A stretch of 64,000 nt of DNA from Phycisphaeraceae bacterium (GTDB lineage Bacteria > Planctomycetota > Phycisphaerae > Phycisphaerales > Phycisphaeraceae), in assembly GCA_040878035.1 (NCBI GenBank), contig JBBDMX010000099.1, positions 1,367 to 65,366 on the forward strand, given 5' to 3'. The stretch's first letter is position 1, and each line of letters begins with the position of its first letter. Below, one piece after another: positions 746-52,732 of this stretch. Under the pieces are notes generated by a model, which was given only the letters and a program-made list of their open reading frames with translations, searched no databases and had not been told where the DNA came from. Both the position numbers and the translations under genes were made by a program.

Positions 746-782
746 TCATTTCGGATTTCGGATTTCGGATTTCGGATTTTCA
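746..782. repeat. Heptamer microsatellite (TTTCGGA/CGGATTT)n with a conserved TTTTCAAGG tail (REP-A family)
   Basis: gtcatttcggatttcggatttcggatttcggattttcaagg read directly. The same array recurs at 10598-10650, 10828-10898, 48459-48491 and 52676-52698. Confidence 0.85.
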
Positions 783-902: not shown

Positions 903-2372
903 ATGAATCGCTCGTACCAGGATTCCACGCCCAGCGCGGCTGTCGCCGAGCCGATTGATGCTCCCGATGCATCGATCAGCCGGCCTCCCGCGCGGGTCGG
1001 GACGGGCGAGTTGTCGGGCCGACTGGCGGGACTGTCGCTGCCGCGCCAGGTGCTGGTCCTGGCGATCTGGCCCTTGATGGAGCAGATTCTCAACTTTCTG
1101 GTGGGCATGACGGACCTGATGCTGGCCGGGCGGCTGTCGCCTGATGCCGTCAAGGTGGCGGCGATCGACGCCCTGGGCGTGGCGGGCTACATCGGCTGGG
1201 CGATGAACCTGCTCCAGGCGGCGGTGGGCGTGGGCTCAGCGGCACTGATCGCCCGCGCCATCGGCGCCCGCCATCGCCGCGTCGCCAACTCTGCCCTGGG
1301 CCAATCGCTGCTGCTGGCCACATGCAGCGGCGTGACGGTTGGGGTCGTGATCTACCTGGGTGCCGGGGTCATCGGGCGGTTTGCCGGCCTGGAAGGCCAG
1401 GGCCTGGCGTTCTGCATCACTTACCTGCGCATCGTCAGCCTCGTGGCGCCCGCCAGCGCCATCCTCTTTGTCGGCAGTGCCTGCCTGCGCGGCGCCGGCG
1501 ACACGCGAACGCCCTTTGCCGTGATGGTCGTCGTGAATCTCACCAACGCCGTGGCCAGCATCCTGCTGGTGTTCGGCCCGGCGCCGCTGGGCGGACACGG
1601 CGTGGCGGGCATCGCCGCCGGCACCGCCATCGCCTGGATCGTCGGCGCCGCCATCGTCCTGACCGTGCTGATCCGCGGCTGGGGCGGCATCCGCCTGCGC
1701 CTCATCCGCCTGCGCCCCCATGCCTACACGATGAAGCGCATCGTCCGCGTGGGCCTGCCCAATCTCGCCGAATCCTCGGGCATGTGGATCGGCAACTTCC
1801 TGATTCTCAAGATCGTCGGCGCCCTGGGCATCTACGGCGCCATCGGCGCGCACATGATCGCCATCCGCATCGAGGCGATCAGCTTTCTGCCGGGCTTCGC
1901 CATCGGGCTGGCGGCCGCGACGCTCACGGGCCAGTACCTGGGCGCGGGCAATCCGCAGCGTGCCCGCCAGGCGGTGCTGCTTTGCTGGTTCGCCGGCGCG
2001 GGCATCATGATGCTGCTGGGCCTGGTGTTCATTCTCATTCCCGAGCAGTTGGTCTGGCTGATCAGCAATGCCGACACGCACATGGAGCAGGCTCCGCGCC
2101 TGGTGCGCATGGCCGGGTTCATCCAGGTGTTCTTTGGCACCTATGCCGTGCTGTCCAACGCCATTCGCGGCGCCGGCGACACCCGCAGCGCCATGCTGAT
2201 GACTTACGCCTCCACTTTTCTCATCCGTCTGCCCGCGGCGGCACTGCTGGGCGTGGTCCTTGACCTGGGGTTGCTGGGCGTGTGGATCGCGCTGTGCGGG
2301 GAGCTGATAATCCGCGGCGGCATGTTCGCGGCGCGATTCCTGCACGGCGGGTGGGCGAAGGTGAAGGTGTGA
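903..2372 (+). CDS. MATE family multidrug efflux transporter
   Basis: ORF 789..2372, ~12 predicted TM helices, MATE-like LVLAIWPLMEQILNFLVGMTDLMLAGRL and a duplicated half-repeat. Start chosen at MNRSYQD (903); the upstream in-frame Met at 789 is an alternative. Confidence 0.8.
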   Translation: MNRSYQDSTPSAAVAEPIDAPDASISRPPARVGTGELSGRLAGLSLPRQVLVLAIWPLMEQILNFLVGMTDLMLAGRLSPDAVKVAAIDALGVAGYIGWAMNLLQAAVGVGSAALIARAIGARHRRVANSALGQSLLLATCSGVTVGVVIYLGAGVIGRFAGLEGQGLAFCITYLRIVSLVAPASAILFVGSACLRGAGDTRTPFAVMVVVNLTNAVASILLVFGPAPLGGHGVAGIAAGTAIAWIVGAAIVLTVLIRGWGGIRLRLIRLRPHAYTMKRIVRVGLPNLAESSGMWIGNFLILKIVGALGIYGAIGAHMIAIRIEAISFLPGFAIGLAAATLTGQYLGAGNPQRARQAVLLCWFAGAGIMMLLGLVFILIPEQLVWLISNADTHMEQAPRLVRMAGFIQVFFGTYAVLSNAIRGAGDTRSAMLMTYASTFLIRLPAAALLGVVLDLGLLGVWIALCGELIIRGGMFAARFLHGGWAKVKV

Positions 2373-2455
2373 TGCACCCTCACTCGAGGAGAGGGTGCGC
2401 CCCTGGTACGACTCGGGCTCGGCTTGGCGACAACACCACAGGAACTCAAACGCCC

Positions 2456-3760
2456 ATGATCCGCATCAGTGACAACCGACGTTTCCTCATCAACGACGAT
2501 GGTTCACCTTTCTTCTATTTGGCCGACACCGCGTGGGAGCTGTTCCACCGCCTTACCCGCGAGGATGCCCGCTTCTATCTGCGTGATCGCGCGGCCAAGG
2601 GGTTCAACGTCATCCAGGCGGTGCTGCTGGCGGAGTTCAACGGATTGACGCTGCCCAACGCCTATGGCCACCTGCCGCTAGAGAACGGCGACCCGGCGCG
2701 ACCCATCGACGCTTACTTCCAGCACGTGGATTGGATCGTGGACCAGGCCGCGGCGCTGGGCCTGTACATCGGCATGCTGCCGACCTGGGGCGACAAATGG
2801 AACAAGAAATGGGGCACCGGGCCGGAGATCTTCACGCCGGACAACGCGCGGGTGTATGGCCGCTACGTGGGCCGGCGCTATCGCGACAAGCCGATTATCT
2901 GGATTATGGGCGGTGATAGGCATGTCGAGACCGAGCCGCATTTGGCGATTCTCATCGCCATGGCCCAGGGCATCCGCGACGCGGGCGCCGACCAACTCAT
3001 GACCCTGCACCCGCATGGCGGCCACGGATCATCAGAGTCCGTGCACCAGCAGCCGTGGCTTGACTTCAACATGTGGCAGTCCGGCCACGCGCGGCGCTAC
3101 AACCCCAACTGGCGCATGATCGACGGCGACTACCAGCTCATGCCGACCAAGCCGACGCTCGATGGTGAGCCGTGGTACGAAAACCACCCGGTAGCGCACG
3201 GCAAGCAGAGCATCTGGTGCGACGAGCACGATGTGCGCTGCCTGGCATACTGGGCGGTGTTCCACGGCGCCTGCGGGCACACCTACGGCTGCCATGACAT
3301 GTGGGGCTTTACCGAGCCGGGGTGGCAGCCCGTCGCCACCGTGCGCGGCCACTGGTTCGATTCGATCCACCTGCCCGGCGCCCGCCAAGTCGGCTACTTG
3401 AAGAACCTGATGCTCTCGCGACCGTATCTGACCCGCATTCCCGATCAGTCGATTCTGATCGGCGACGCCGGTTGTGAATCCGACCATCGCGCTGCTACGC
3501 GCGACGGCACCGTGGGCCAAAAGGACGCAACCTATGTCATGGCCTACTGCCCCACACCCGCAGCGCAAGCGCTGGACACTTCGGTCATCGCCGGGGCGAA
3601 GCTGCGCGTTTGGAGCTTCAATCCGCGCAGCAGCCACGCGCGGCGGGAACGCGAGATCGACAATGCGGGCCGGTTTCACACCGACCGCTCGCAGGTCGGG
3701 CCGGACCGTGTGATCGTGATCGATGATGCGGCGCGGGATTACCCGCCGCCGGGGAGTTGA
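2456..3760 (+). CDS. GH140-like (DUF4038/DUF5060) glycoside hydrolase
   Basis: MIRISDNRRFLINDDGSPFFYLADTAWELFHRLTREDARFYLRDRAAKGFNVIQAVLLAEF... is typical of the DUF4038 apiosidase-like TIM barrel. Start at ATG 2456 inside ORF 2282..3760. Confidence 0.6.
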   Translation: MIRISDNRRFLINDDGSPFFYLADTAWELFHRLTREDARFYLRDRAAKGFNVIQAVLLAEFNGLTLPNAYGHLPLENGDPARPIDAYFQHVDWIVDQAAALGLYIGMLPTWGDKWNKKWGTGPEIFTPDNARVYGRYVGRRYRDKPIIWIMGGDRHVETEPHLAILIAMAQGIRDAGADQLMTLHPHGGHGSSESVHQQPWLDFNMWQSGHARRYNPNWRMIDGDYQLMPTKPTLDGEPWYENHPVAHGKQSIWCDEHDVRCLAYWAVFHGACGHTYGCHDMWGFTEPGWQPVATVRGHWFDSIHLPGARQVGYLKNLMLSRPYLTRIPDQSILIGDAGCESDHRAATRDGTVGQKDATYVMAYCPTPAAQALDTSVIAGAKLRVWSFNPRSSHARREREIDNAGRFHTDRSQVGPDRVIVIDDAARDYPPPGS

Positions 3761-3780
3761 CTCGGAATATTCACCACGGA

Positions 3781-4050
3781 GGACGAAGAGAAAAAGGCGT
3801 GAACACGAAGACACGAAGGCACGAGGAGGAAAAAAGGCGAAGGAACCGCGGATGAATGCGGACAAACGCGGATAGAAGGCAGAAAGATCAAATAAGGATC
3901 GAGTGGTTGATGTTCATCCTGTCTGTCCTTGCATGGATCCTCTTGCTTTTTTCATCCGCGTCCATTCGCGTCCATCCGCGGTTTCTTCTTCTTCGTGTCT
4001 TCGTGCCTTCGTGTTCATCCCCGTTCCCTCTTCTCCGTGTTCTCCGTCGT
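3781..4050. terminator. Composite long hairpin built from tandem 8-10 nt units (GAACACGAAG / CGCGGATGAA), between convergent genes; candidate bidirectional terminator
   Basis: gaacacgaagacacgaaggcacgagg pairs with cttcgtgtcttcgtgccttcgtgttc, and gcggatgaatgcggacaaacgcggat pairs with catccgcgtccattcgcgtccatccgcgg (nested inverted repeats). Confidence 0.55.
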
Positions 4051-4062
4051 AAATGGTTCGCA

Positions 4063-5031
4063 TCAATCACGCTGTGCCTCGGCGCGGGGGCTGGGCGGAC
4101 CGACGGCTGGGCCCGCGGCCGGACCGGTCGCCGGGCCTGCGCCAGCATCGCGCCGCCCTCGGCCTTGCGGGCGATTGTCCATCAGCACATACACGCGGTC
4201 GCGATGCTCGGCGGGAATCGCCGCCTCCACCTGCCGCTTGGCGATCCCCATGTTCGTCCGCCGCGACATGTGCGTCAGCACGATCGCCTCGGCCTTGCTC
4301 TTGGACAGCAGCGTGACGATGTCGTCCAGGTGCAGGTGCATGCCGATGTTGGCCCGGCCGCGATGCTCGGCCTCGAGAAAGGTGCACTCGGTGATGAGGA
4401 TCTTGGCATTGAGCACGTCCGGCCGGTCAAAGTGCTTGCCCCAGGCCGTGTCGCCCGTGTAGCACACCAGCGGGATCTCGTGCTGATCGGTGATGGCCTT
4501 GCCCGCGGTCTTGAGCTTCATCAACTCCTCCTGGGGTAGACCCGCCAGTTCGGCCTTGAGCTTACTCCGCCGCTCCAGCACCACATAACCCAGCGAGGGA
4601 ACGCGATGCTCGGTCGCAAAGCCACGCAGAAAGATATTGTTCTTGATCTCGACTTCGTTGTCGGGCGCCAGGCCGATGACGCGGTAAGGCGTCTTCTGGG
4701 CCTCGATGTCGATCCAGGCGCGCATGAGATTGTGGATCGGCTTCTCCAGGTCGGGGTGACAGACGACGGTGCCCTCGCCCATGCCCTGGAAGGCACGTTG
4801 GGAGAAGTAGTATGCCAGTCCCGCCGAGTGATCCATGTGCCCGTGCGACAGGGCGACGTACTTGCTGGTCAGCGCGGTGCGCGGGCAGCGGCCGATGTCA
4901 AAGCACACGTCCAGCTCGGGCACCTGCACGACCGACTCTTCGCCGGCAATGGAAATGCCCTGCACGCGGTAAGGCGGCAGATAGAGAAAACAGGTGGGGG
5001 GACAGCGCGGCGGTTCTTTGGGAACAGACAT
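4063..5031 (-). CDS. MBL-fold metallo-hydrolase, RNase Z (ElaC)-like, with a low-complexity G/P/A C-terminal tail
   Basis: HxHxDH motif in LSHGHMDHSAGL, plus downstream His/Asp ligand spacing. Start at Met MSVPKEPP (cat at 5029-5031) within ORF 4063..5223. Confidence 0.6.
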   Translation of the reverse strand: MSVPKEPPRCPPTCFLYLPPYRVQGISIAGEESVVQVPELDVCFDIGRCPRTALTSKYVALSHGHMDHSAGLAYYFSQRAFQGMGEGTVVCHPDLEKPIHNLMRAWIDIEAQKTPYRVIGLAPDNEVEIKNNIFLRGFATEHRVPSLGYVVLERRSKLKAELAGLPQEELMKLKTAGKAITDQHEIPLVCYTGDTAWGKHFDRPDVLNAKILITECTFLEAEHRGRANIGMHLHLDDIVTLLSKSKAEAIVLTHMSRRTNMGIAKRQVEAAIPAEHRDRVYVLMDNRPQGRGRRDAGAGPATGPAAGPAVGPPSPRAEAQRD

Positions 5032-5175
5032 CGGGAGAGCCTGGGGGTCAGTGTCCAACAGCAAAAAACCCGGGAACGGCGTCGATCCACAGCGGGCGGC
5101 CTGGCGATGAACAAAGTCATGACAAGCCCGACACTGACCACAAGGCCCCTGGCAAACGGGTCGCCGAACCCAACA

Positions 5176-5255
5176 GGCCGCGGTGGGATTCGAACCCACG
5201 AAGCTTTCGCAACGGATTTGCAATCCGCCCCATTAGTCCACTCTGGCACGCGGCC
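5176..5255 (-). tRNA. tRNA-Cys (anticodon GCA), 80 nt, with a 12-nt variable arm (4-bp stem) and no encoded CCA
   Basis: Reverse complement GGCCGCGTGCCAGAGTGGACTAATGGGGCGGATTGCAAATCCGTTGCGAAAGCTTCGTGGGTTCGAATCCCACCGCGGCC. It has a 7-bp acceptor stem, a GTGGG-TTCGAAT-CCCAC T-arm, and an anticodon stem-loop GCGGA-TTGCAAA-TCCGT matching E. coli tRNA-Cys. CGAA-AGC-TTCG forms an extra arm. Confidence 0.6.
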
Positions 5256-5732: not shown

Positions 5733-6044
5733 CCTGAGTTCGGGATAAGCCATGAGTTGCTGGAGAAGCGCCGGGCCGAGAACCAGGTGTCTTGCAGGCC
5801 CAAAGGGCTGTGATCCCTCAGCCCGGCCCAACGGGCCGGGAACCTCGGCCACCCGGTCTGGCAGGCCCCAACGGGGCGGTATAGGGATGCTCGATCATGC
5901 CAGCGATCAGGCGATATCGCGGCCCTTCAGGCCGCAGAACACGCCACACCGTCGACCCCCCAGCCCGTTGGGCTGGGCTGAGGAATACCGGCCCTTCGGG
6001 CCTCAAAGAAGCTTCACGACGCGCGGGCTTATCCCGAACTCAGG
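5733..6044. repeat. ~312-bp element bounded by a perfect 19-bp terminal inverted repeat (cctgagttcgggataagcc / ggcttatcccgaactcagg); MITE-like or structured RNA
   Basis: IR arms at 5733-5751 and 6026-6044. The interior is packed with short hairpins (ggcccttcaggcc, ggcccttcgggcc, cagcccgttgggctg). It lies ~480 bp from the tRNA in a lower-GC stretch without a convincing CDS. Confidence 0.45.
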
Positions 6045-9851: not shown

Positions 9852-10400
9852 ATGCGACGCACGCTGGGCATTCACTGGATCGCCACCACGCACGGCACGT
9901 GGCTGCACGGCGACGTGCGCGGGTCGTGGAGCAATGGACGACTGGTCGGCCCCGACCCGTTTCTTGAAGAAGCGATTGCCGCCCGCATGACTCACGACGC
10001 GGTGGTGCTGTCAGCGACGGAGGTGATCAGCGTGGCGGTGGAAATGGGCAGCACCATCCGCGAGCATGGTCATCGTGTGTGTGCCGCGACGATCCAACCG
10101 ATGCACGTACACATCGTGTTCGCCCCGCTGCCGGAGGATGTGAAGACGACCATTGCGCGGCTTAAGAAGCGCACCGCCGACCTGGTGCTGGGTGTTCGTC
10201 GCAAGATGGGGGATGACCGCGAGCACCTGTGGACGCAGGGGCAGTTCCCCGTGTTCATCTTCGACGAGGATCATCTGCGCAACGCCATCGAATACGTGCG
10301 GCGGCACAATGTCCGCATCGGTCGCCCGGCCGACCCGTACGAATGGATCGACCCGTTATATCCCGCATTGGAATCCGGCCAAAATGGCCGGGCTATATAG
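9852..10400 (+). CDS. IS200-like / REP-associated tyrosine transposase (RAYT) family protein
   Basis: HuH motif MHVHIVFAP, a C-terminal tyrosine region NAIEYVRRHN, and N-terminal W-x-T-x-G-x-WLHGD. It is a paralog of 60045..60575. Confidence 0.6.
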   Translation: MRRTLGIHWIATTHGTWLHGDVRGSWSNGRLVGPDPFLEEAIAARMTHDAVVLSATEVISVAVEMGSTIREHGHRVCAATIQPMHVHIVFAPLPEDVKTTIARLKKRTADLVLGVRRKMGDDREHLWTQGQFPVFIFDEDHLRNAIEYVRRHNVRIGRPADPYEWIDPLYPALESGQNGRAI

Positions 10401-10528: not shown

Positions 10529-11992
10529 TCACGTGGCGCGGATCACTGCGCCGGCGACGTGGCCACCGAAGCCGGCGGCGAAGATGGCGTGGGTGCGGAG
10601 GGGAATTTCGGATTTTGGATTGCGGATTTCGGATTTGGGATTCAAGACACTGGAAACTGGACACTGGACACTGGACAACTTGAGCAGAAAGGAGGTCTTG
10701 ACCGGTTCGCGGAGCCAGGGCATGGGGGGGATGCGGTTGGTGCGGGCGACCAGGGCGGCGATGACCAGGGACGCCAGACCAGCGGCGCCCAGGCCGTGGC
10801 CGATGGCGCCTTTGAGGGCGTAGAGACGGGGAATTTCGGATTTCGGATTTCGGATTTCGGATTTGTTTCGGATTTCGGATTTGGGATTTCGGATTTCGCC
10901 CGCACCGCCCCCGGGGGTGGTGCTCGGGCTAACTTCTGTCTCCTGACTCCTGTCTCCTGACTCCTGACTCCTGCCTTGCCGCAGTATTTGCTCGTATACC
11001 GCCAGTTCCATTTCGTCGTTTTCGGCGGTGCCGGTGGCGTGGGGGTGGAGGACGTCGATGCGGCGGTTGGCCAAGAGTTCGCTGGCGACGTGCGCCAGGG
11101 CGGGCATGTGCGGGGCGGGGCGGATCAGGTCGTGGGCTTCGCAGGCGATGGCGGTGGCATCGAGGTAGAGGCGGGGCGCTAAACCGCACGCGGTGGGGGG
11201 GGCGTTGGGGTGATCGGTTCGCTCCAGGACGACCGCGGCGGCCAGTTCGGTGAGCATGAAGCCTTGGCGGGCTTTATCCAGCGGTCGGGCCTGGTATTCG
11301 TCAGGCGTCAAGGGGGGCAGGACCCCCAGGCGACGGTAGCTGTGGATGAACGTGGGCAACAGCGCGGCTTCGGAGGTCAGGACGAGGACGCGGTCGGCCT
11401 GGCCGCGCAGAAGCGCCAGCCTGGCGAAATGGAGGGCGGTGAGGCTCGAGGCACAAGCGGCGACGACGGTGTGGACCTGGCCCAAGCCCAGTCGCCGGCG
11501 GAGATGGTGCGCCATGTAGCCGACCGGACCGAGGGTGACGGCGAGGGGGAGGTCAGGATATTGAGCACCAGGAACGGCTTGAGGGACTGCGCGAAGCCGC
11601 AAGCGGCTGGGGACCGTATTGTATCGCTCGATGGCTTGGGATAGGGCGTGGACGGCACCCTTACTGACGCCCAGGTGGCAGTCGATGGGTGAGACGCCCG
11701 TGTCGTCCGGATCGATTCTGGCCATCGCAAGTGCTTGTCTTGCAGCACGTTCTGCCAGATTGACGGCCGGATCGATGCCGCTGTGCTGGACGGCGCTGAC
11801 ACAACCGACGGCCCGCACCAGTTGCACGGGTTCGACTTGGCCGCCTGGGGACAGGTCCTGCCCTAGTGCGGCGCAGCGGTCAGCGATGGTACGGCCGCGC
11901 AACAGTGCCGCGTAGGTCTCCCAAGCTGATAGTCCCAGCGGCGAAACCAAGCCGAATCCGGTAATGGCGATAGATGGCTCGGATTTGTCCAA
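10529..11992 (-). CDS. Beta-ketoacyl-ACP synthase (KAS I/II family) carrying two in-frame REP-A insertions
   Basis: Active-site VVAACASSLTAL (Cys), HPHATGTAENDEMELAV (His), LKGAIGHGLGAAGLASL (His), C-terminal IFAAGFGGHVAGAVI. Inserts encode EIRNPKSEIRNKSEIRNPKSEI and LNPKSEIRNPKSEIP. Probable TTG start at 11992 (MDKSEPSIAITGFGLVSPLG) inside ORF 10529..12427; the upstream 145 aa of that ORF is P/R-rich non-protein-like. Confidence 0.65.
   Translation of the reverse strand: MDKSEPSIAITGFGLVSPLGLSAWETYAALLRGRTIADRCAALGQDLSPGGQVEPVQLVRAVGCVSAVQHSGIDPAVNLAERAARQALAMARIDPDDTGVSPIDCHLGVSKGAVHALSQAIERYNTVPSRLRLRAVPQAVPGAQYPDLPLAVTLGPVGYMAHHLRRRLGLGQVHTVVAACASSLTALHFARLALLRGQADRVLVLTSEAALLPTFIHSYRRLGVLPPLTPDEYQARPLDKARQGFMLTELAAAVVLERTDHPNAPPTACGLAPRLYLDATAIACEAHDLIRPAPHMPALAHVASELLANRRIDVLHPHATGTAENDEMELAVYEQILRQGRSQESGDRSQETEVSPSTTPGGGAGEIRNPKSEIRNKSEIRNPKSEIPRLYALKGAIGHGLGAAGLASLVIAALVARTNRIPPMPWLREPVKTSFLLKLSSVQCPVSSVLNPKSEIRNPKSEIPLRTHAIFAAGFGGHVAGAVIRAT
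10596..10700. repeat. REP-A array (CGGATTT)n followed by (CACTGGA)n, located inside the KAS coding sequence
   Basis: ggggaatttcggattttggattgcggatttcggatttgggattcaagacactggaaactggacactggacactggacaac. Confidence 0.8.
10826..10976. repeat. REP-A array (CGGATTT)n followed by (TGTCTCCT/GACTCCT)n, located inside the KAS coding sequence
   Basis: ggggaatttcggatttcggatttcggatttgtttcggatttcggatttgggatttcggatttcgcc...tgtctcctgactcctgtctcctgactcctgactcctgcc. Confidence 0.8.
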
Positions 11993-12569
11993 AGTCCAGG
12001 GTCTTTCAGGGCCGATCGCGGCTTCGCGCAGGGCTGGAAGCAGGGCGTGACCCCGGTTAATCGTGCGGTCTCGCGAAGCCGCAAGCGGCCTATGGCAGGA
12101 CGTTGGACAATAGTTTAGCGGGATTCGCGTCCGATAGCCGAAAGCGGAAAATTGCTGTCGGTGTTGAAACTGGGGATAGGCAGGGGAGGGGTTTGTCCCT
12201 ATAATGGCGGTGCCAGTCGGTCGGCAGGCTGGCGGGAATCGGTCAACGGCCATGGGCAGTCGGCGTTGAACCGGTTTGGGTGGCGGATCGTACGCTACCT
12301 GACGCCTGCCGGCTGGGGGAGAATGGGATCGGCCGCCCGGCCGAGTCGAATCAGGACGGTTCGATCGGAAAGACAGGAGGTCAAGCGTACCATTAGCCAC
12401 CCTAAAAGGACTGACAATCCCGGACATCCGGAATCCCTAGACCCAGACCTCGGGAGTCACCCGGCGCACGGCGTCATCCCCGAAGGCCCCCGGCGTTACC
12501 CCGGGAACACCGGCACCCGAAACGTGATTTGCACCCATGCCCACCACCGGTGGACATGCCTGAACCATC

Positions 12570-15500
12570 ATGATGAGCATTGATCCCCGCTTTATCCGCG
12601 AGCAAGGCCCGGAGGTCTTCACCGGCAACGAACTGCTGGTGAAAGGCGCCTTGGAAACCCGAGGCGGTGTGCATCTGCTCACCGGCTATCCGGGGTCGCC
12701 CATCGCCGGGTTCTTTGACGGCCTGGAAGCCCTGGGCCCCCTGCTTAACGACAAGGGTATCGTCGCCAAGATGGCCAACAACGAGGCCCTCTCGGTCGCC
12801 ATGGTCAACGGCGCCCAGATGGCGGGGTGCCGGGTCGTCGTCGCCTTTAAGTCTGTCGGCCTGCACGTGGCCGCCGACGCCCTGGCGTTGGGCGTCCTGG
12901 CGGGCACCCGCGAGGGCGATCCGTCCAATGGCGGAGGGTCGGGCGGCGTGGTCATCTGCGGCGAAGATCCCTGGAGTGATTCCACCCAGGTCCCCGCCGA
13001 CTCACGCTTCCTGGCTGAGCACCTGCGCATGCCCATGATCGAGCCGTCCTGCCCGCAGGAGGTCAAGGACTGGATCGACCTGGCGTTCACCCTGGGCCAC
13101 GCCGGCCGAATTTACATCGGCTACAGCATGACCACCGCCCTGGCCGACGGCGGCGGCACGGTGCAGTGCCGGCCCAATCAGTACCCCCTCTTCAACGAAC
13201 ACAAGAAACGCTCCCTCTCCTACGAAAAGGACATCCAGCCGCATCTGGACTCGACCGTGCTGCTTCCGCCGCGTACCTGGCAGAAGGAGTTGAAAATCGA
13301 TGATCGGCACGCCGCCGTCAAGGCCGAGGCACGCCGGCTGGGCATCAACCGCATCCTGCACAAGCCGCAGCGCGACGAAGTCGTGCCCATGGGCTTCATC
13401 GCCGCCGGCCACGCCTATGCCTATCTCAGCCACGCCCTGGCGGAGATGAACCTCACCGGCCGAATCCCCATCCTCAAATTGGGTATGCACTACCCCGTGG
13501 ACGAGGTGATCGTCACCGAGTTTGCCCGCCAGTGCCGCCAGGTCATCGTCATCGAGGAGCGACGCGGTTTCGTCGAGCGGCAGGTGATCGAGATCCTGGC
13601 CCCGCTGCGGCAGAGTGGCGAACTGGAAGTGCAGGTCTTCGGTAAGCAGTTCCCCAAGCCCCACCCCGGCATCCCGGCGACGCGCGGCCTGAACCCGTCG
13701 ATCCTCATCGAACGCCTGGTCCCCCTGATCAAGAACCACCCGACCCTTCCCATCGAGTTGACCAACGGTCGACTGACCGCCGAGTTGGACCGCATCCGCG
13801 CCACCGCCGATTACCAGGTGCAAATCCCCACGCGCACGCCCACGTTCTGCCCCGGCTGCCCGCACCGCGACTCCTCCAGCGTGCTGCTGGAACTCCGCCG
13901 CGACCTGCGTGACCCGCAGTACATGGTCCGCCATCACAAGAGCAAGCCCGTGGACTTGGTGGCGCACGGCGACACCGGCTGCTACACCATGCTGATGTTC
14001 GCCCCCAACCAGGCGCTGATGCACAACTACAGCGGCATGGGCTTAGGCGGCGGCACCGGCAGCGGCGTCGATCCCTTCATCGACAACAAGCAATTGGTAT
14101 TCATGGGCGACGGCACGTTCTTCCACTCCGGCCAGATCGCCATCTCCCATTCGCTTCAGACCGGCCAGGACATTACTTACATCATCCTGGAAAACAAGAC
14201 CACCGCCATGACCGGGCACCAGACCAATCCCGGCCTGGAGTACGACCTGCGCGGCAACCCTACCTCGGCGCAGGACATCGAACGCATCGTCCACGGCATG
14301 ATCCCCAAGCAGTTGACCAAGGACGTGCGTATCGTCCGCATCAACCCCGCCGACCGTGATCGCTACCGCAAGCTGCTCGAGCAGACCATCCTGGCCGACG
14401 GGGTCAAGATCATCATCGCCGACAAGGAATGCGGCATCACCTATCACCGCCGCATCCGCGGCCAGGAACGCAAGACCCTTAGCGAACTGGGCTTCCTCCC
14501 CCGCAAGACCTACATGAACGTCGCCACCGAGGTCTGCGAATACTGCCTGGAATGCACCAGTCAGACCGGCTGCCCCGGTCTGACCGTGACCGATACCGAC
14601 TACGGCCCCAAGATCCAGACCGACTTTTCCTGGTGCGTCAACGACGGCGCCTGCGAACGCGTGCACGCCTGCCCATCGTTTGAGGAAGTGACCATCGTGC
14701 GCAAGAAGGCGCCGCGCTGGGGCGACGAACATGTTGACCTGGACGACATCCCCCAGCCGCCCAAGCCGATCCATGCCGACCAGGACACCTGGCGCTGCTA
14801 CCTGACGGGCGTGGGCGGCATGGGCGTGGGGCTGTGCACGGCCATTCTGACCACCGCCGGTCACGAAATGGGCTACCACGTGCAGTTCATGGATAAGAAG
14901 GGGCTGGCGATCCGCAACGGCGGGGTGTTTAGCCAACTGGTCTACACGCGGCCGACCAGGCCTGATGCTGCGACCGCCGTAGGCTCCGTCGGGGCCGGAG
15001 GCTCGGGGGGGACCGGGGCATCAGGGGTGTCCGGGGCATCCGGGGCATCCGGAGCTTCCGGGGCGTTTGAAGCGGCGACCACGCCGATCATCCCCTACGG
15101 CAAGGCCGACCTGCTGCTGGGCGTGGACCTGTTGGAGGCGGCGCGGGCGATCGATCCCAAGCATCCCTACCGCGTGGCGTCGCCGCAGTGCACTGCGGCG
15201 GTAGTCAACACCGCCAAGACGCCCACGATTCTGACCCTCATGGGCCAGGACAATTTCGACGTGGGTCACTTGGAGGACACGCTGCGCCGCTACACGCAGC
15301 CGAACCATTACTTTGGCTTCAACGTCGGCGATCTGTGCGAGCGCGTGCTCGACTCCAAGCTTTACGCCAACATCATGATGCTGGGCATCGCCTATCAGAA
15401 GGGCTACTTGCCGCTGAAGCTCGAAGCCATTGAGAAAGCGATCCGCACGGTGATCCGCAGCGAAACGGAGCGCAACCTGCGTGCGTTCAACATCGGGCGC

Positions 15501-16394
15501 AAGATCGCGGTGCGCCCCGACTTGTTCGTGGTCGAGCTCAAGCACGAGTATGAGTCGGCACGGCAGGCGTTTCGCCGCAAGGTCAACATGATCCGCGCCA
15601 GCGTAGGCCAGGGCCGCCGCGGCAAGCGCATCGCCAAGCACTTCCGTGTGCTCATGAAGCAGACTTTCCGCGCCACCGCCCGCCTGCGCGTGGACGACCA
15701 ACTCATGCGCGACGTGATCGTCCGTGCCTATGACTGTTACGTCTGGGGCGGGATGAAATATGCCCAGCGCTACTGCAAGCGGCTCACCGAGGTGTTCGCC
15801 AAGGACGATCCTTCCGCCGACTACGCCATCACGCGCGCCGTGGTGTGGAACCTGGCCAAGGTGATGCTGATCAAGGACGAGGTCTACGTTTCGGCGATGC
15901 TCACCAGCCCCGAGAAGTACAAGCGCGACATGCGCCGCTTCAACGTCAACCCGGCGCGGGGCGACCGGATTCTCTACCGCCATCACAACCGGCCCGAGTT
16001 CCAGGTGCTGGGCCATCGCCTGCGCTTTGTGTGGAAGAGCCGCGACTGGCAGCTTCGCCTGATGGCGCGCGGCGCTTTCCTGCGCAAGCTCCTGCCCACC
16101 TGGCATCGCCGCGAACGCAACTTCCGCGACTGGTACGAGTCGCTGGTGGACCAGTTGGAAGTCCAGCACCCCTCGACCGATCCGCGCAACTACCAGCGCT
16201 GGCTGACGATGCTGTGCGGGCCGGAGAACGTCAACGGCTACCGCGAGGTGCGCTATCCCAAGATGGAGGCGGCGCGGCTGATGGCGGCACGCGTGCTGGC
16301 CATGCCCGCCGAGGATTTCAACCCGCCCGAGCCGCCGCCCCCCGCCGAACCCGGCACCCGCACCGTCAGCCTGACGGTGATGTCAAGCGCGTAA
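12570..16394 (+). CDS. Indolepyruvate/2-oxoacid ferredoxin oxidoreductase, fused alpha-beta (IorAB-like), 1274 aa
   Basis: The N-terminus (MMSIDPRFIREQGPEVFTGNELLVKGALETRGGVHLLTGYPGSPIAGFFD) is typical of the fused IOR family. TPP-binding and [4Fe-4S] Cys clusters (CPGCPHRD, CEYCLECTSQTGCPG) are present. An internal G/S-rich low-complexity insert sits at ~15000-15070. Confidence 0.85.
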   Translation: MMSIDPRFIREQGPEVFTGNELLVKGALETRGGVHLLTGYPGSPIAGFFDGLEALGPLLNDKGIVAKMANNEALSVAMVNGAQMAGCRVVVAFKSVGLHVAADALALGVLAGTREGDPSNGGGSGGVVICGEDPWSDSTQVPADSRFLAEHLRMPMIEPSCPQEVKDWIDLAFTLGHAGRIYIGYSMTTALADGGGTVQCRPNQYPLFNEHKKRSLSYEKDIQPHLDSTVLLPPRTWQKELKIDDRHAAVKAEARRLGINRILHKPQRDEVVPMGFIAAGHAYAYLSHALAEMNLTGRIPILKLGMHYPVDEVIVTEFARQCRQVIVIEERRGFVERQVIEILAPLRQSGELEVQVFGKQFPKPHPGIPATRGLNPSILIERLVPLIKNHPTLPIELTNGRLTAELDRIRATADYQVQIPTRTPTFCPGCPHRDSSSVLLELRRDLRDPQYMVRHHKSKPVDLVAHGDTGCYTMLMFAPNQALMHNYSGMGLGGGTGSGVDPFIDNKQLVFMGDGTFFHSGQIAISHSLQTGQDITYIILENKTTAMTGHQTNPGLEYDLRGNPTSAQDIERIVHGMIPKQLTKDVRIVRINPADRDRYRKLLEQTILADGVKIIIADKECGITYHRRIRGQERKTLSELGFLPRKTYMNVATEVCEYCLECTSQTGCPGLTVTDTDYGPKIQTDFSWCVNDGACERVHACPSFEEVTIVRKKAPRWGDEHVDLDDIPQPPKPIHADQDTWRCYLTGVGGMGVGLCTAILTTAGHEMGYHVQFMDKKGLAIRNGGVFSQLVYTRPTRPDAATAVGSVGAGGSGGTGASGVSGASGASGASGAFEAATTPIIPYGKADLLLGVDLLEAARAIDPKHPYRVASPQCTAAVVNTAKTPTILTLMGQDNFDVGHLEDTLRRYTQPNHYFGFNVGDLCERVLDSKLYANIMMLGIAYQKGYLPLKLEAIEKAIRTVIRSETERNLRAFNIGRKIAVRPDLFVVELKHEYESARQAFRRKVNMIRASVGQGRRGKRIAKHFRVLMKQTFRATARLRVDDQLMRDVIVRAYDCYVWGGMKYAQRYCKRLTEVFAKDDPSADYAITRAVVWNLAKVMLIKDEVYVSAMLTSPEKYKRDMRRFNVNPARGDRILYRHHNRPEFQVLGHRLRFVWKSRDWQLRLMARGAFLRKLLPTWHRRERNFRDWYESLVDQLEVQHPSTDPRNYQRWLTMLCGPENVNGYREVRYPKMEAARLMAARVLAMPAEDFNPPEPPPPAEPGTRTVSLTVMSSA

Positions 16395-16395
16395 G

Positions 16396-16499
16396 CGTGA
16401 GAGTGAAAAAGTGGAAAGTGAAAAGTAGAAAGCAGCAAACCGGTAGGCCTGCGTCTGCTTGGTTCTTCTGACTTTCTACTCCCCACTTCTCACTTCTCG
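16396..16499. terminator. Hairpin from tandem (GTGAAAAGT/GAAAGT) units between convergent genes
   Basis: gagagtgaaaaagtggaaagtgaaaagtagaaagcagcaaacc pairs with ggttcttctgactttctactccccacttctcacttctc. Confidence 0.55.
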
Positions 16500-18038
16500 C
16501 TATGGCCCGTCACTTCGCAGCTTGTCCACCAGCGCCGCCACCGGCACCGTGGCGATCTTGGTCGCCACATCCGACATCGCATAGGGGATGATCAAGGTGT
16601 CGCGGTGAATCATCGGCCCGCATGAATAGACCACGTTGGGCACGTAGCCTTCACGCTCGTCGGCGGTGGGAACCAACAGCGGCTGGCGCAGGCGGCCGAG
16701 CACCTTGCCCGGATCGTCGCGGTCCAGCAGCATCGCGCCCACGCAATACTCGCGCACCGGCCCCACGCCGTGTGTCAACAGAATCCAGCCTGCCTCGGTC
16801 TCCACCGGCGAGCCGCAGTTGCCGATCTGCACCAGTTCCCAGGGCTCCCTGGGCTCCTGAAGCGGCTGCGACACGTTCCAGAAGTGCGGGTTGTCTGAGC
16901 GCAGCAGGTACAGCTTCTCCCCGTCGTGCCGCGACACCATCAGGTAGTCCCCGCCGACCTTGCGCGGGAACATCGCCATGCCCTTGTTACGGACGAATTT
17001 GCCGTTGAGCGTACTGATGTGGTAGCGGCGGAAGTCGGTGGTCTCCAGCAGCATGGGCATGATGCGGTACCCGTCGTAGGCCGTGTAGGTGCCGTAGTAG
17101 CACGCCTGGCCCCGGTCATCAATGAAGCGCACCAGGCGCAGGTCCTCCATGCCGCGGCTTTCGTTTTCCGTGGCGGGGAAGATGACGGTTTCCGCGGGCA
17201 GGCAGTGCGCGGGGAAGCGCAACTCGTAGTTGGCGCGGGCCAGCCATTGCATGCTCTTGACGTCGATTTCGAAGGATGCGGGCAGGTCGGGCGCGGCGCC
17301 CGCCTCATTAATGGCGCCTTCCAGCTCCTTGAGCGTGAACTGGTCCCCGACCCGCTCCAGCACCAGTAGCGCCGACGGTTCGTGGCCCGCCATTTCCTGC
17401 AACTTGCGCAGAAACAGCGCCTTGTTGTAGAGCTTGTCGGGAATCGGCTTGGCGGTATAGGCATAGCGCTGCGCCGGATCGAAACTGATCTGGCAGTCCT
17501 TGTCGATCACGCCGCGACGATAGACGATCGACGAAACATGGCCTTCGCCCGTGGCACGCATGCTCATGAGGAAGCGGATCGCACCTTCGGGCAGGCCGGT
17601 CTGGTCGGGGTGCAGGACGATCGACGGATTGAACAGCGCCGCCGACTCGATGGAGTATTCGAGGGTGAAGTAGGCGCCAATCAGCGCGCGGCGTGCCGGG
17701 CTGACGGGCTGGCCGTCCAGACGCCCCGCCACTTCGTTGAAATGCGACTCAAACGCACCGTCCAGATCGTAGTGCCGATCGGAGAAGTGCTCTTGCACCG
17801 TCGCCAGCAGTTGGACCACTTCCGGCTCGCCCAGGGCCATCAGGCGTTGCAGGATCGATTTGATCCGCGTCTCATCACCGAAGTTGAGGTAGCGCGTGAT
17901 CACCCGTTTGTCGTCGGAGACGAACTGCTCGGGGAGGCGCACGATCGACAGGGGGGCGACGGTGGGCGCTTCGGGTGTAAGGGTGGAGGCGGTCGTGGTG
18001 GTCATGGCGGTGTCGAGCGCACTTGCGTCATGGGGCAT
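16500..18038 (-). CDS. GH130-like (DUF377 beta-propeller) glycosidase/phosphorylase-family protein with an extra N-terminal domain
   Basis: The C-terminal VPNVVYSCGPMIHRDTLIIPYAMSDVATKIATVPVAALVDKL resembles the GH130 C-terminus. Start taken at Met MPHDAS (18038); MTTTTAST (18005) is an alternative. The 5' extension of ORF 16500..18260 overlaps the ilvC start and is unlikely to be coding. Confidence 0.5.
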   Translation of the reverse strand: MPHDASALDTAMTTTTASTLTPEAPTVAPLSIVRLPEQFVSDDKRVITRYLNFGDETRIKSILQRLMALGEPEVVQLLATVQEHFSDRHYDLDGAFESHFNEVAGRLDGQPVSPARRALIGAYFTLEYSIESAALFNPSIVLHPDQTGLPEGAIRFLMSMRATGEGHVSSIVYRRGVIDKDCQISFDPAQRYAYTAKPIPDKLYNKALFLRKLQEMAGHEPSALLVLERVGDQFTLKELEGAINEAGAAPDLPASFEIDVKSMQWLARANYELRFPAHCLPAETVIFPATENESRGMEDLRLVRFIDDRGQACYYGTYTAYDGYRIMPMLLETTDFRRYHISTLNGKFVRNKGMAMFPRKVGGDYLMVSRHDGEKLYLLRSDNPHFWNVSQPLQEPREPWELVQIGNCGSPVETEAGWILLTHGVGPVREYCVGAMLLDRDDPGKVLGRLRQPLLVPTADEREGYVPNVVYSCGPMIHRDTLIIPYAMSDVATKIATVPVAALVDKLRSDGP

Positions 18039-27543: not shown

Positions 27544-27615
27544 TCTCTGATCTCTGATCTCTAAATTAGGCCAAGCCCCGTCATGCCCCGCTTTGGTGAC
27601 TTTCCGGGGATCGCG

Positions 27616-32475: not shown

Positions 32476-32610
32476 TTTCAAATCTCTGATTTCTAAATTG
32501 TGAACCGCTTGCGGTTTAGCCTTCCCTTGGCGCAAATCAGAAATCAGAATTCAGACGGCCTCAACAGCGTAACGCTAAATCAGAAATCAGAAATTAGAAA
32601 TTAAACGGCA
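32470..32610. repeat. Inverted repeat of (TCTCTGATTTC / AAATCAGAAATCAGAAATTAGAAATT) units containing a REP-C core
   Basis: tctctgatttcaaatctctgatttctaaatt ... ccgcttgcggtttagcc ... aaatcagaaatcagaattcag ... aaatcagaaatcagaaattagaaatt. Relatives occur at 27541-27570 and 47272-47300. Confidence 0.7.
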
Positions 32611-47303: not shown

Positions 47304-48458
47304 ATGCGTGACCCTCGAATCGACAAACTGGCCCGCGTGATCGTCGAATATTCCACCGGCGTCAAGAAAGGCCAGCTCGTGCGCATCAGCGGCGATCCCG
47401 TGGGCATGCCGCTGCTGGAGGCAGTATATGAGCACGCCCTGCGGGCCGGGGCGCACCCGTTTCTCAAGCTCACGCCCAACAGTGCTGCTGACCTGTTCAT
47501 GGAGCTGGCCAATGAGGAGCAGCTCAAGTACGTCAGCCCGCTGGCGCAACAGGAGATCGAGAAGATCGACGTGTCGATCGGCTTGTGGGCCGAAACCAAC
47601 ACCAAGGCAATGTCGCGGATCGACCCGGCGCGGCAGGGCATGGCGTCGGCGGCGCGCAAGCCGATCTTCAAAGTGTTCATGGACCGCGCCGCCAAGGGCG
47701 AACTCAAGTGGTGCGGCACGCTGTACCCGACACTCGCCAGCGCCCAGGATGCGGAGATGAGCCTGCGGCAGTACGAGGATTTTGTCTTTGCCGCCGGCCA
47801 CCTGGACAAGGACGATCCGGTCGCCGAGTGGCAGAAGATCGCCGCCAGTCAGCAGAAGGTGGTGGATCATCTCAAGGGCAAGAAGGTGGTGCATTTTGCC
47901 TCCGGCGCCGGCACCGACCTGACGGTGAACGTGGAGGGCATGACTTGGATTAACTGCTGCGGACACGAAAATTTCCCCGATGGCGAGGTGTTCACCGGGC
48001 CGAACTTGAAGGCGGCCGATGGTGGGGTCAACGGCGTGGTGCGCTACTCCTTCCCGGCGGTGCACCACGGCCACGAGGTGCACGACATCGAACTGACCTT
48101 CGAGAAGGGCAAGGTGGTCAAGGCCACGGCGGAGAAGGGTCAGGATTTCCTGGAGAAAATGCTCGATCAGGACGAAGGCTCCCGCCGTCTGGGCGAAATC
48201 GCCATCGGCACCAACTACCAGATACAGCAATACAGCAAGAATACGCTGTTTGATGAGAAAATCGGCGGAACCTTCCACGCGGCGGTCGGGGCGGGCTATC
48301 CCGAAACGGGCAACAGCAACGAATCAGGTCTGCACTGGGATATGGTGTGCGATCTGCGCGGCACGGCCAAGGGCGGCGGCGGGACGATCACCGTTGATGG
48401 GGAAGTGATTTCGCGGGATGGAAAATTTGTGTTTGAGGGATGGCCCGGGGGGACGTGA
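47304..48458 (+). CDS. Aminopeptidase, M29 (AmpS/aminopeptidase T) family
   Basis: MRDPRIDKLARVIVEYSTGVKKGQLVRISG N-terminus and the C-terminal metal-ligand region HWDMVCD. Confidence 0.85.
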   Translation: MRDPRIDKLARVIVEYSTGVKKGQLVRISGDPVGMPLLEAVYEHALRAGAHPFLKLTPNSAADLFMELANEEQLKYVSPLAQQEIEKIDVSIGLWAETNTKAMSRIDPARQGMASAARKPIFKVFMDRAAKGELKWCGTLYPTLASAQDAEMSLRQYEDFVFAAGHLDKDDPVAEWQKIAASQQKVVDHLKGKKVVHFASGAGTDLTVNVEGMTWINCCGHENFPDGEVFTGPNLKAADGGVNGVVRYSFPAVHHGHEVHDIELTFEKGKVVKATAEKGQDFLEKMLDQDEGSRRLGEIAIGTNYQIQQYSKNTLFDEKIGGTFHAAVGAGYPETGNSNESGLHWDMVCDLRGTAKGGGGTITVDGEVISRDGKFVFEGWPGGT

Positions 48459-48533
48459 TTTCTGATTTCGGATTTCGGATTTCGGATTTTTCAAGCCCGG
48501 CCATGCGAGTCTTCGAGCTTGGCCGGGATCCCG
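48459..48533. repeat. REP-A heptamer array immediately followed by one REP-B unit (AAGCCCGGCCATGCGAGTCTTCGAGCTTGGCCGGGAT)
   Basis: Read directly after the aminopeptidase stop. Confidence 0.8.
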
Positions 48534-48625
48534 CCCGCACCGTTGGTGCCTGGGCTAACCACAAAAAAGCCGGGCGCGATCTGGCGACCAGGCCCGGCCG
48601 GAGGAGTTGGAACTGTCAGCGTACG

Positions 48626-52011: not shown

Positions 52012-52677
52012 ATGTCCAACAAAAAAGCATTGATCGTCTGGGGCGGATGGGCTGGGCATACGCCCAAGCAGTCAGCTGACGTATTCGCGCCCTTCCTTGA
52101 GCAGCAGGGTTACGAAGTCCAGGTGTCCGACACTTTGGATGCCTATCTCGATGAGGCAAGCATGTCGGCCCTGGCGCTGATCGTGCCCATCTGGACCATG
52201 GGCACCATCACCAAAGAGCAATGGGACGGCCTGAACAAGGCGGTGCGCAGCGGCGTGGGCCTGGCGGGGTTCCACGGCGGCATCATCGACTCCTTCCGCA
52301 ACAACACCGAGTACCAGTTCATGACCGGCGGACAATGGGTCGCCCACCCGGGCAACTGCATCCCCGCCTACGACGTGAAGATCACCGACAAGAACCACCC
52401 GATCACCCGCGGCATCAGCGATTTTGCTCTGCGCGACACCGAACAGTATTACGTGCACGTCGACCCCGGCAATCACGTGCTGTGCAGCACGACGTTCACC
52501 GGCGAGCACGGCGACGCGAGCCTGTACAAGCCGGGCACGGTGATGCCCTTTGCCTGGACGCGCACGTGGGGGCAGGGCAAGGTGTTCGTCGCGGCGTGGG
52601 GGCATACGTTCAAGGATTTCGACGTGCCCGAGGCCAAGCAGATCGTGGAGCGCGGCATGATGTGGGCCAGCAGGTGA
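52012..52677 (+). CDS. ThuA-like class I glutamine-amidotransferase-fold protein
   Basis: MSNKKALIVWGGWAGHTP...GFHGGI is typical of the ThuA family. Confidence 0.7.
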   Translation: MSNKKALIVWGGWAGHTPKQSADVFAPFLEQQGYEVQVSDTLDAYLDEASMSALALIVPIWTMGTITKEQWDGLNKAVRSGVGLAGFHGGIIDSFRNNTEYQFMTGGQWVAHPGNCIPAYDVKITDKNHPITRGISDFALRDTEQYYVHVDPGNHVLCSTTFTGEHGDASLYKPGTVMPFAWTRTWGQGKVFVAAWGHTFKDFDVPEAKQIVERGMMWASR

Positions 52678-52732
52678 TTGCGGATTTCGGATTTGTCTCC
52701 TTGTCTCCTTGTCCCCTTGTCACTCCGATACC

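Follow-up and report, generated by a model that had tools for sequence, protein, structure and literature searches.

Non-triplet tandem repeats are normally purged from coding DNA. Among prokaryotic genomes, a general excess of heptanucleotide simple sequence repeats (SSRs) is credited to Mrazek (2007) in the citing papers PMC4692102 and PMC4679880, and the described families include GGGAATC in Xanthomonas and GGGGAYT in Nostoc, for which inverted pairs were noted and intragenic copies are rare (7-11% in Xanthomonas; PMC4692102), as well as the TAACTGA repeats of Beggiatoaceae and cyanobacteria, which accumulate ahead of start codons (PMC4679880). Rickettsia palindromic elements (RPEs) are found in frame in many enzyme genes and are, by prediction, structurally compatible with the encoded proteins, as far as PMC10969869 relates the work of Ogata et al. 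(2000). Here, we describe a gene for β-ketoacyl-acyl carrier protein synthase (KAS) with two in-frame blocks of heptanucleotide arrays, inserts A and B, which lies in a 64,000-nucleotide stretch (hereafter, the window) from a Phycisphaeraceae bacterium (GenBank assembly GCA_040878035.1, contig JBBDMX010000099.1). Given the intact reading frame, the retention of nearly all conserved residues, the confidently predicted FabF fold, the variability of the two loops, and the purifying selection on orthologues, the blocks are likely to be tolerated surface-loop insertions in the gene of a functional enzyme, with the arrays drawn from the dispersed heptamer population of the genome.

In the product of the open reading frame (ORF) at 10529-11992, Pfam domains PF00109 (N-terminal, 3.8e-20) and PF02801 (C-terminal, 2.3e-14) were found, together with the ketosynthase motifs AACASS (residues 178-183), HPHATGT (316-322), GHGLGAAG (398-405), and FAAGFGGH (471-478). 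These are all four motifs named in a first-pass annotation made from the letters of the window, which had reported a KAS I/II gene with its catalytic motifs intact. C180, H318, K394, and H399 align to the catalytic motifs of FabF and are invariant in 71 family members; furthermore, of the 125 alignment columns with a conservation of 90% or more among the other 70 members, the window protein keeps 123, the two deviations (F to Y and E to Q) are conservative, and most members of the family keep fewer. An AlphaFold model, which was run with 70 homologues, had a mean predicted local distance difference test score (pLDDT) of 87.6 and a predicted template modelling score (pTM) of 0.89, and its best Foldseek matches were all FabF/KAS II (E ~1e-24, target-normalised TM score of 0.74-0.80); FabF structures were also matched by sequence. 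The label “KAS I/II” thus stands for the fold and the catalytic residues but not for the family, because the protein scores 93.4 bits in the FabF equivalog model TIGR03150 against a cut-off of 493.75, and none of the NCBIfam KAS models, including the FabF and FabB equivalogs, reaches its cut-off. An insert-free orthologue (P0003) likewise falls under all of these cut-offs. We file the window enzyme as a divergent FabF-like condensing enzyme of a separate Phycisphaerae family.

The limits of the two inserts were set against the alignment of orthologues (Table 1), which corrects the sizes of ~45 and ~33 aa in the first-pass annotation to ~48 aa (144 nt) and ~25 aa (75 nt). Tandem Repeats Finder (TRF) reported four period-7 arrays in the gene: (ATTTCGG)x5.4 at 10605-10642, (ACTGGAA/ACTGGAC)x4.4 at 10646-10680, (ATTTCGG)x9.9 at 10833-10898, and (ACTCCTG/TCTCCTG)x6.0 at 10932-10973. 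The in-frame (CGGATTT)n described previously was hence found again, each copy being flanked by an array of another unit, and the EIRNPKSEIRN peptide repeats are present in the translation. On the coding strand, insert A runs from (CAGGAGW)5 through a 36-nt GC-rich hairpin to ~9 units of AAATCCG, in which an AAAC interruption (10865-10869) leads TRF to report a period of 32 nt as well, and insert B runs from (GTCCAGT/TTCCAGT)x4 at 10646-10675 to a degenerate (AAATCCG)x5 at 10604-10642. What the two inserts have in common is only the (AAATCCG)n module and the terminal ...GAAATTCCCC, and their other modules differ; they are not two copies of one composite element, as had been proposed, but mosaics of heptanucleotide tandem arrays. 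Nor are they palindromes of the repetitive extragenic palindromic (REP) type to which they had been assigned: the repeats are direct and in tandem, the 36-nt core is the only hairpin-forming part of insert A, the sense RNA of insert B has no structure (minimum free energy (MFE) of -2.5 kcal/mol, z +1.65), and neither terminal inverted repeats nor target-site duplications were found at either insert. Also, the 21-nt period of a 7-nt unit, by which the survival of the frame had been explained, is insufficient alone; the frame is kept open by block lengths that are divisible by 3 and by the lack of stop codons in the sense frames of the units. The arrays in the gene are not pristine, with several point changes and one 3-nt deletion, and are therefore not brand new but would have been present for some time, if they began as perfect repeats.

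Table 1. Coordinates of the ketosynthase gene, its inserts, and other features in the window
Feature	Position	Strand	Details
Ketoacyl synthase gene	10529..11992	minus	487 aa; TTG start at 11992, stop at 10529-10531
Insert A	10832..10975	minus	144 nt, aa 340-387 (GRSQESGDRSQETEVSPSTTPGGGAGEIRNPKSEIRNKSEIRNPKSEI); loop between HPHATGT and KGAIGH
Insert A module, (CAGGAGT/CAGGAGA)x5	10940..10978	minus	translated QGRSQESGDRSQE
Insert A module, GC-rich hairpin GCCCGCACC...GGTGCTCGGGCTAAC	10898..10933		translated VSPSTTPGGGAG
Insert A module, (AAATCCG) ~9 units	10832..10897	minus	one 4-nt AAAC interruption; EIRNPKSEIRN-KSEIRNPKSEI
Insert B	10604..10678	minus	75 nt, aa 439-463 (LSSVQCPVSSVLNPKSEIRNPKSEI); loop ahead of C-terminal FAAGFGGH
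Intergenic (ATTTCGG)x4.6	748..779		(AAATCCG)n when read on the minus strand; ends 10 nt before a minus-strand start codon
Intergenic composite at the 3' end of gene 47304-48458	48457..48559		(GATTTCG)x4.7, TTCAAG, hairpin, then GCCCGCACC...GGGCTAAC hairpin copy
Intergenic composite between two plus-strand genes	52676..52721		(CGGATTT)x2, then (TTGTCTCC)x3.6
Y1 (IS200-like) tyrosine transposase relative	9852-10400	plus	182 aa; converges on KAS; PF01797 24 bits, NF047646 33 vs 80
tRNA-Cys	5175-5255	minus	Rfam
Acido-Lenti-1 sRNA motif	5959-6003	plus	Rfam, 42.1 bits; gathering score 37

We found 320 homologues of the window protein, the best of which is ~50% identical, and the family is specific to Phycisphaerae and other Planctomycetota. 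The orthologue set was composed of 80 loci from named genomes and gave 81 sequences together with the window. At 48 of the 80 loci, the KAS gene is adjoined by a divergently transcribed gene for an indolepyruvate-type 2-oxoacid oxidoreductase (IOR), and the orthology of the KAS loci is supported by this conserved divergent neighbour. In a sub-clade (L073, L046, L047, L053, L067, and L080), a ~1200-aa fusion replaces IOR as the neighbour of KAS; this fusion contains the alpha and beta parts of 2-oxoacid dehydrogenase E1, a lipoyl domain, and FabH (KAS III), and is located at 1376-4978 on the minus strand of L073.

In terms of loop length, the window protein is the longest of the 81 at both sites. 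The loop at site A has 25-32 aa in most of the 80 orthologues and 74 aa in the window, and that at site B (from PPMPW to GH) has 35-49 aa in the orthologues and 57 aa in the window; given that the baseline loop at site B is already ~40 aa, the net excess there is ~18 aa. No other loops of the family vary as much in length as these two, and syntenic orthologues of ~50% identity were found without the extra length at either of them. In the AlphaFold model, low confidence is confined to residues 130-145, 346-385, and 437-460, which correspond to the two inserts and one further variable loop, with all the rest confidently folded; pLDDT falls below 50 at residues 368-382 in insert A and 441-445 in insert B. 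When compared with FabF from Helicobacter pylori (8z5c), site A corresponds to the short “FGSKEKVP” connection ahead of the Lys-x4-His strand, and site B to the “DPECDLDYIPNAAREKQV” segment ahead of the C-terminal GFGG strand. Sites A and B, which thus fall in variable, low-confidence loops of a predicted FabF fold, would be solvent-exposed, judging from the confidence of the model and the variability in length.

Orthologues with in-frame arrays of their own are under purifying selection. The ratio of nonsynonymous to synonymous substitution rates (dN/dS) is 0.12 at dS of 0.115 between L010 and L018, which are complete genomes with two in-frame arrays each, and 0.18-0.33 for other pairs of array-bearing orthologues; furthermore, no frameshifted ORF was found among the 80 orthologues. 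The orthologues thus provide direct evidence that ketosynthases with arrays at the same sites do work.

Across the 81 KAS coding sequences (CDSs), we detected 17 strong arrays of period 7, and each of the other periods between 5 and 12 had only 0-2. The arrays cluster at four loops, namely at residues ~197 and ~258-266 in the numbering of the window protein, site A, and site B, and their units (CCGATAC, AGTCCCG, GTTGGCG, AACCGCA, CGAAACC, CCTCAAG, and CCCGCTC) differ by lineage. The density amounts to 0.17-0.22 arrays per kb in KAS, versus 2 arrays in 687 kb (0.003 per kb) of other predicted CDSs and 16 in 871 kb (0.018 per kb) of all flanking DNA; as the latter comparison does not depend on the quality of the crude gene calls, the enrichment in KAS is at least 9-fold in any case. 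Arrays are over-represented as well in the 500 nt that directly follow KAS and at the 3' end of the oxidoreductase gene. Both of the arrays in “other” CDSs belong to L073, where they lie in frame in the E1-lipoyl-FabH fusion that partners KAS divergently; one is in a linker and the other is an inverted pair in a hypervariable loop of the FabH domain.

These arrays are old. In a clade of KAS proteins with 57-79% identity, the site-B loop is constant in length and has a CCTCAAG array; L001, L010, and L018 share one perfect 31-nt version of it, and six other members have it in decayed form. The KAS proteins of L001 and L010 are only 60% identical despite the identical array. Within the same clade, between 1 and 4.6 units of CCGATAC are found at site 197, and L010 and L018 have identical arrays. 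Because the arrays are shared by the clade with such a change in copy number, they are old and changing in place, and in some lineages they have been re-homogenised. By inspection, not by phylogeny, at least a dozen independent intragenic array events are counted. A search for periodicity at an offset of 7 at the protein level was too insensitive, with 3 matches, of which P0088/L086 (ENA ERZ27280278) was the useful one: in this gene (397-1701, 46% identical), (AAATCCG)n occurs in the same sense at site A and is followed by (CTCACTC)n. L086 has further arrays, (AACYCGG)n just upstream of the gene and one of AAATTTC type at site 197. A broader claim that the variable loops are generally derived from arrays was dropped, since the lag-7 signal without the array-bearing members is barely above a compositionally raised background.

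The genome around the gene abounds in heptamers as well. CGGATTTCGGATTT occurs 14 times in the window with up to one mismatch, compared with 0.00 expected, and the 64 kb contain 9 strong period-7 arrays (4 of them inside the ketosynthase gene) versus 0-1 for periods of 5, 6, and 8-11. Outside the gene, (CGGATTT)n of at least 2 units was found at three loci (748-779, 48457-48489, and 52676-52694), not at four as claimed before, and the other array loci bear heptamers of different units at gene boundaries. The dispersed boundary arrays are at 748, 16402-16498, 27540-27652, 32534-32603, 47274-47298, 48457, 49180-49300, and 52676. With units joined head to tail in at least 3 copies, an excess of period 7, dispersal at gene boundaries, and inverted pairs, they have the features of heptanucleotide SSRs. 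The GC-rich hairpin of insert A (GCCCGCACC...GGTGCNNGGGCTAAC) has 2 pattern matches in the window against 0.00 expected, the other copy being intergenic at 48533-48559; the two copies form an identical stem, and both lie downstream of a (CGGATTT)n array. This hairpin was absent at the 80 orthologous loci. Also, the (TTGTCTCC)x3.6 array that follows (CGGATTT)n at 52676-52694 resembles the CTGTCTCCTGACTCC array of insert A.

How firmly these blocks can be regarded as tolerated depends on the alternatives, one of which would be errors of assembly. The source is a contig of a metagenome-assembled genome (MAG) from short reads, and a contig from the same run in an independent Logan assembly (L082) breaks in the (ATTTCGG)n array at 10853, which indicates that the repeat confuses assemblers and might allow repeat-induced chimeric joins to place intergenic repeats in the gene. 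Starting from that array, however, L082 is identical to the window, with 0 mismatches in 7960 nt, and spans the hairpin, the second array of insert A, the remaining gene, and the upstream gene, thus reproducing the array-hairpin-array order of insert A; moreover, the sequence on either side of each insert is that of one gene in an unchanged frame, and equivalent in-frame arrays exist in many independent assemblies, including complete chromosomes. An artefact is accordingly scarcely credible. A recently inactivated pseudogene, in which the inserts destroyed the function and the ORF is yet to decay, had been offered by the first-pass annotation side by side with tolerance. Consistent with it, the window loops are the longest of the family at both sites, the G+C content at third codon positions (GC3) of the gene is 0.74, below that of most neighbours (0.8-0.9), and a housekeeping FabF is presumably encoded elsewhere in the genome, no KAS paralogue being present within the window. 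Against it, both blocks are in frame (a chance of ~1 in 9) and stop-free, the changes in conserved positions are limited to the two conservative ones, the arrays are already mutated with the rest of the gene undamaged, and array-bearing orthologues are under purifying selection. We hence regard inactivation as very unlikely and favour tolerance, against which several points nonetheless weigh. A very recent inactivation would still be compatible with the sequence; the exposure of the loops is that of a predicted model and of variability in length; two scans of genome contigs and one metagenome scan with the insert-free protein gave no relative above ~50% identity, so that there is no true empty site; and simple tolerance leaves unexplained why KAS is struck so much more often than its neighbours.

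Two other explanations were weighed. If the gene were a phase-variable contingency locus, gain and loss of units would shift the frame and switch the enzyme on and off, giving rise to population-level variation in a lipid product. Non-triplet SSRs are indeed located within the CDS, period-7 arrays are strongly enriched in the KAS family across lineages, the 31-nt CCTCAAG array shared by L001 and L010 implies ongoing homogenisation by slippage, and heptanucleotide SSRs, one of which is within an ORF, have been linked to phase variation in Haemophilus influenzae (PMC2651432). Yet none of the 80 orthologues is out of frame, the arrays of L010 and L018 are identical at dS of 0.115, the arrays mostly have 4-5 units, those in the window are interrupted or degenerate, which would reduce slippage, and they are placed late in the gene but not near its start; switching is thus improbable. 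We hold in equally low regard the idea that a discrete mobile element, such as a miniature inverted-repeat transposable element (MITE), a REP, or an RPE-like sequence, was inserted twice, possibly moved by the adjacent gene that resembles REP-associated tyrosine transposases (RAYTs). Such an element would fit the terminal ...CCGAAATTCCCC shared by inserts A and B, the three (ATTTCGG)n arrays that are followed by TTCAAG, the copy of the insert A hairpin at 48533 beside another (CGGATTT)n array, the location of the RAYT-like gene only 129 nt from the KAS stop codon, the occurrence of (AAATCCG)n with the AAAC interruption in many unrelated contigs, and the precedent of in-frame insertion of RPEs in Rickettsia (PMC10969869). 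The lack of inverted termini and target-site duplications and of structure in insert B is not what would be expected from it, however; the module content of the two inserts differs, the best NCBIfam match of the RAYT-like gene, to the REP-associated tyrosine transposase model, scores 33 bits against a cut-off of 80, and the arrays of orthologues change their copy number in place. As to copies with common ends, modules and short ends are shared (GAAATTCCCC, TTCAAG, and the core hairpin in two copies), but no full-length copy recurs. The RAYT-like gene is not flanked by heptamer arrays and has no counterpart at any of the 80 orthologous loci of this array-bearing family, and it was rejected as the cause of a hotspot on the latter ground.

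Tolerated insertions, the reading that we prefer, might come about as follows. The arrays would arise or spread by slipped-strand mispairing, and template switching between array loci may also spread them, by which the presence of common modules at 48457-48559 and 52676-52721 could be explained. They would have grown within, or been copied to, two loops of variable length in the FabF-like ketosynthase, and selection would keep those versions with a total length in multiples of three, a stop-free sense frame, and a hydrophilic, proline-rich peptide (KSEIRNP, QESGVRS, and VQCPVSS). The outcome would be a functional enzyme with two long disordered loops.

We also looked for the array beyond the window. 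When metagenome contigs were scanned for exact (CGGATTT)4, at least 120 matches were obtained (loci labelled L087-L206), and the counts that follow are those among the matches listed. The contigs range from 31 to 68% in G+C. About 25 of 126 arrays are embedded in ORFs whose GC3 is of the coding type both before and after the array, 20 of them in the AAATCCG sense (KSEIRNP) and 5 in the opposite one (RISDFGF), and this bias fits a filter for hydrophilic peptides. L200, L122, L120, L153, L152, L171, and L090 are examples of contigs with in-frame arrays. In six ORFs, Pfam domains flank the KSEIRNPKSEI peptide on both sides, with (AAATCCG)4-5 in frame; the host enzymes are MnmE, leucyl-tRNA synthetase (two arrays), PNPase, a molybdopterin oxidoreductase, a PyrK-like protein, and a NuoC/D-like protein. 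In an ORF of L090, which encodes a putative membrane glycosyltransferase with tetratricopeptide repeats, both orientations are in frame (KSEIRNPKSE ... FRISDFGF). Many of the non-embedded arrays end 0-10 nt from a start codon, with a modest bias in orientation (51/112 vs 30/105). The gene after the array of L135 starts with MAHKKGVGSS, which we take to be ribosomal protein L27.

The interruptions that a token parse detected in otherwise perfect metagenome arrays are all 4 nt long: AAAC in L103, L123, L146, and L173, AAGG in L090, L126, L179, and L204, and AAAG in L190. Full 7-nt gaps, which a single mutated unit would leave, were found in none of the nine parsed metagenome arrays, whereas the window arrays do have mutated units. 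In viral contigs, (CGGATTT)4 had 10 matches versus 1, 4, and 1 for composition-matched heptamers, numbers that are too few to call the unit special. A protein search with (KSEIRNP)6 hit only 21 short hypothetical ORFs, one of them from Acidobacteriota, and was uninformative on host families; the array and its peptides were not found in the literature searched. It is conceivable but rather doubtful that the arrays are more than passengers, that the locus of KAS and its divergent oxidoreductase/FabH partner specifically attracts or retains 7-nt arrays across Phycisphaerae, with units that differ at the same four loops and some arrays that remain perfect over deep divergence, and that (AAATCCG)n with AAAC or AAGG interruptions is a widely shared element, in frame in housekeeping enzymes and immediately ahead of start codons. 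If this is true, the targeting of the locus would imply that arrays are generated by a targeted process or that selection in a lipid-synthesis module favours SSR-driven switching or variable loops.

Elsewhere in the window, arrays occur in two other settings. Inverted pairs that give long hairpins are located at 16395-16500, between convergent genes (MFE of -42.4 kcal/mol, z -5.4), and at 49180-49300. The 3' end of the oxidoreductase gene has an inverted pair also in L010 (1871-1951), L018 (1881-1956), and L036 (5056-5138), with the unit differing by genome. Such pairs look like terminators with 7-nt-periodic stems. Sense (AAATCAG)n or (AAATCCG)n ends 5-10 nt before three start codons, ATG at 32610, ATG at 47304, and one on the minus strand at ~741, the corresponding arrays being 32577-32603 (within 32534-32603), 47274-47298, and 748-779; by analogy with what was proposed for TAACTGA repeats, these arrays may act as translation leaders. 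In the oxidoreductase gene at 12570-16394, furthermore, there is a periodicity of 9/18/27 nt at 15006-15064 that encodes a Gly/Ala/Ser-rich linker (GAGGSGGTGASGVSGASGASGASGA), and this is an ordinary triplet-compatible repeat, unlike the heptamers in the ketosynthase gene.

As for the RNA, the (CAGGAGW)5 module places five AGGAG motifs, which are Shine-Dalgarno-like, in the mRNA. Readings of insert A at the RNA level, such as a CsrA-like GGA sponge, pausing at the Shine-Dalgarno-like AGGAG, or an internal translation start, were set aside as speculation, and no start codon is nearby. Scans with Rfam and for tRNA found no known RNA inside insert A or B, and a scan for promoters and terminators found nothing inside the ketosynthase gene; the Rfam matches in the window are only the two listed in Table 1.

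The public annotation describes this gene as a 632-aa product at 10529-12427 on the minus strand, starting at 12427 and with no Pfam domain recorded. The coding GC3 signal ends at 11992, and the annotated ORF is therefore probably over-extended with its start codon mis-set; over the 145 codons added at the N-terminus, the GC profile is 0.64/0.62/0.58, which is of the non-coding kind, and orthologues begin ~8-20 residues ahead of ITGFG. Exact look-up of the protein returned matches limited to the source MAG, recorded there as GCA_040881425.1 (contig JBBEDE010000095.1), and the Logan contig of one run. Because of the conserved oxidoreductase or E1-lipoyl-FabH partner, KAS plausibly works with acyl primers derived from 2-oxoacids, a proposal that draws on the gene neighbourhood.

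While a bare insertion is explainable, the recurrence at one locus and the in-frame spread through housekeeping enzymes are unexplained. The arrays in KAS provide a natural map of where the FabF fold accepts 20-50 extra disordered residues, and the window ketosynthase is an example outside Rickettsia of dispersed repeats that build protein sequence. Should the hotspot be genuine, beyond mere tolerance, it would point to an unknown process by which heptamer arrays are generated or kept, and it could also mean that free-living Planctomycetota switch a lipid pathway by means of repeats; why heptamers dominate long bacterial SSRs has been an open question since 2007. In more practical terms, array-bearing genes are mishandled by gene callers and annotators, as in the case of the 632-aa ORF.

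When set beside the known systems, the window ketosynthase has the fold, the Cys-His-His-Lys active site, and the C-terminal GFGG motif in common with FabF/KAS II, but it is only ~18-21% identical to the solved FabFs and has four or five hypervariable loops. It is also a stand-alone gene by a 2-oxoacid oxidoreductase gene (of the indolepyruvate or the E1-lipoyl-FabH type), whereas FabF belongs to a fab/acpP cluster; no such cluster was found around the ketosynthase, and the divergent 2-oxoacid oxidoreductase is its sole conserved neighbour. In function, RPEs are the nearest parallel to the window inserts, and in type of sequence the heptameric SSR families are. RPEs resemble the window inserts in being short dispersed repeats that occur both between genes and in frame in unrelated enzymes, with the added peptide tolerated. 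RPEs are, however, palindromic, ~100-150 bp long, and characterized by a conserved peptide, whereas the window inserts are mosaics of 7-nt arrays with variable copies, no overall palindrome, and modules that differ by site, and the arrays of orthologues change in place. In H. influenzae, phase-variable SSRs also have 7-nt repeats in or beside genes, where a change by one unit shifts the frame as it would in the window arrays, but those tracts have 8-38 units, vary among strains, and include frameshifted alleles (PMC2651432), in contrast to the 4-9 interrupted units of the window and no out-of-frame allele in the 80 orthologues. Known families of heptameric SSRs, including the short tandemly repeated repetitive (STRR) sequences of cyanobacteria, share with the window the genome-specific arrays of ~4 units at gene boundaries, the hairpin-forming inverted pairs, the positions before start codons, and the occasional intragenic copy. 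The units in the window (ATTTCGG, CTCCTGW, ACTGGAM, AAATCAG, and others) nonetheless differ from GGGAATC, GGGGAYT, TAACTGA, and STRR and cannot form G-quadruplexes, and the reports cited for the known families describe neither recurrence in one orthologous enzyme family nor long in-frame loops as in KAS. It is above all this locus-specific recurrence at the same loops, besides the unit sequences and the mosaic architecture, that sets the arrays of the ketosynthase apart from the heptamer families known so far.

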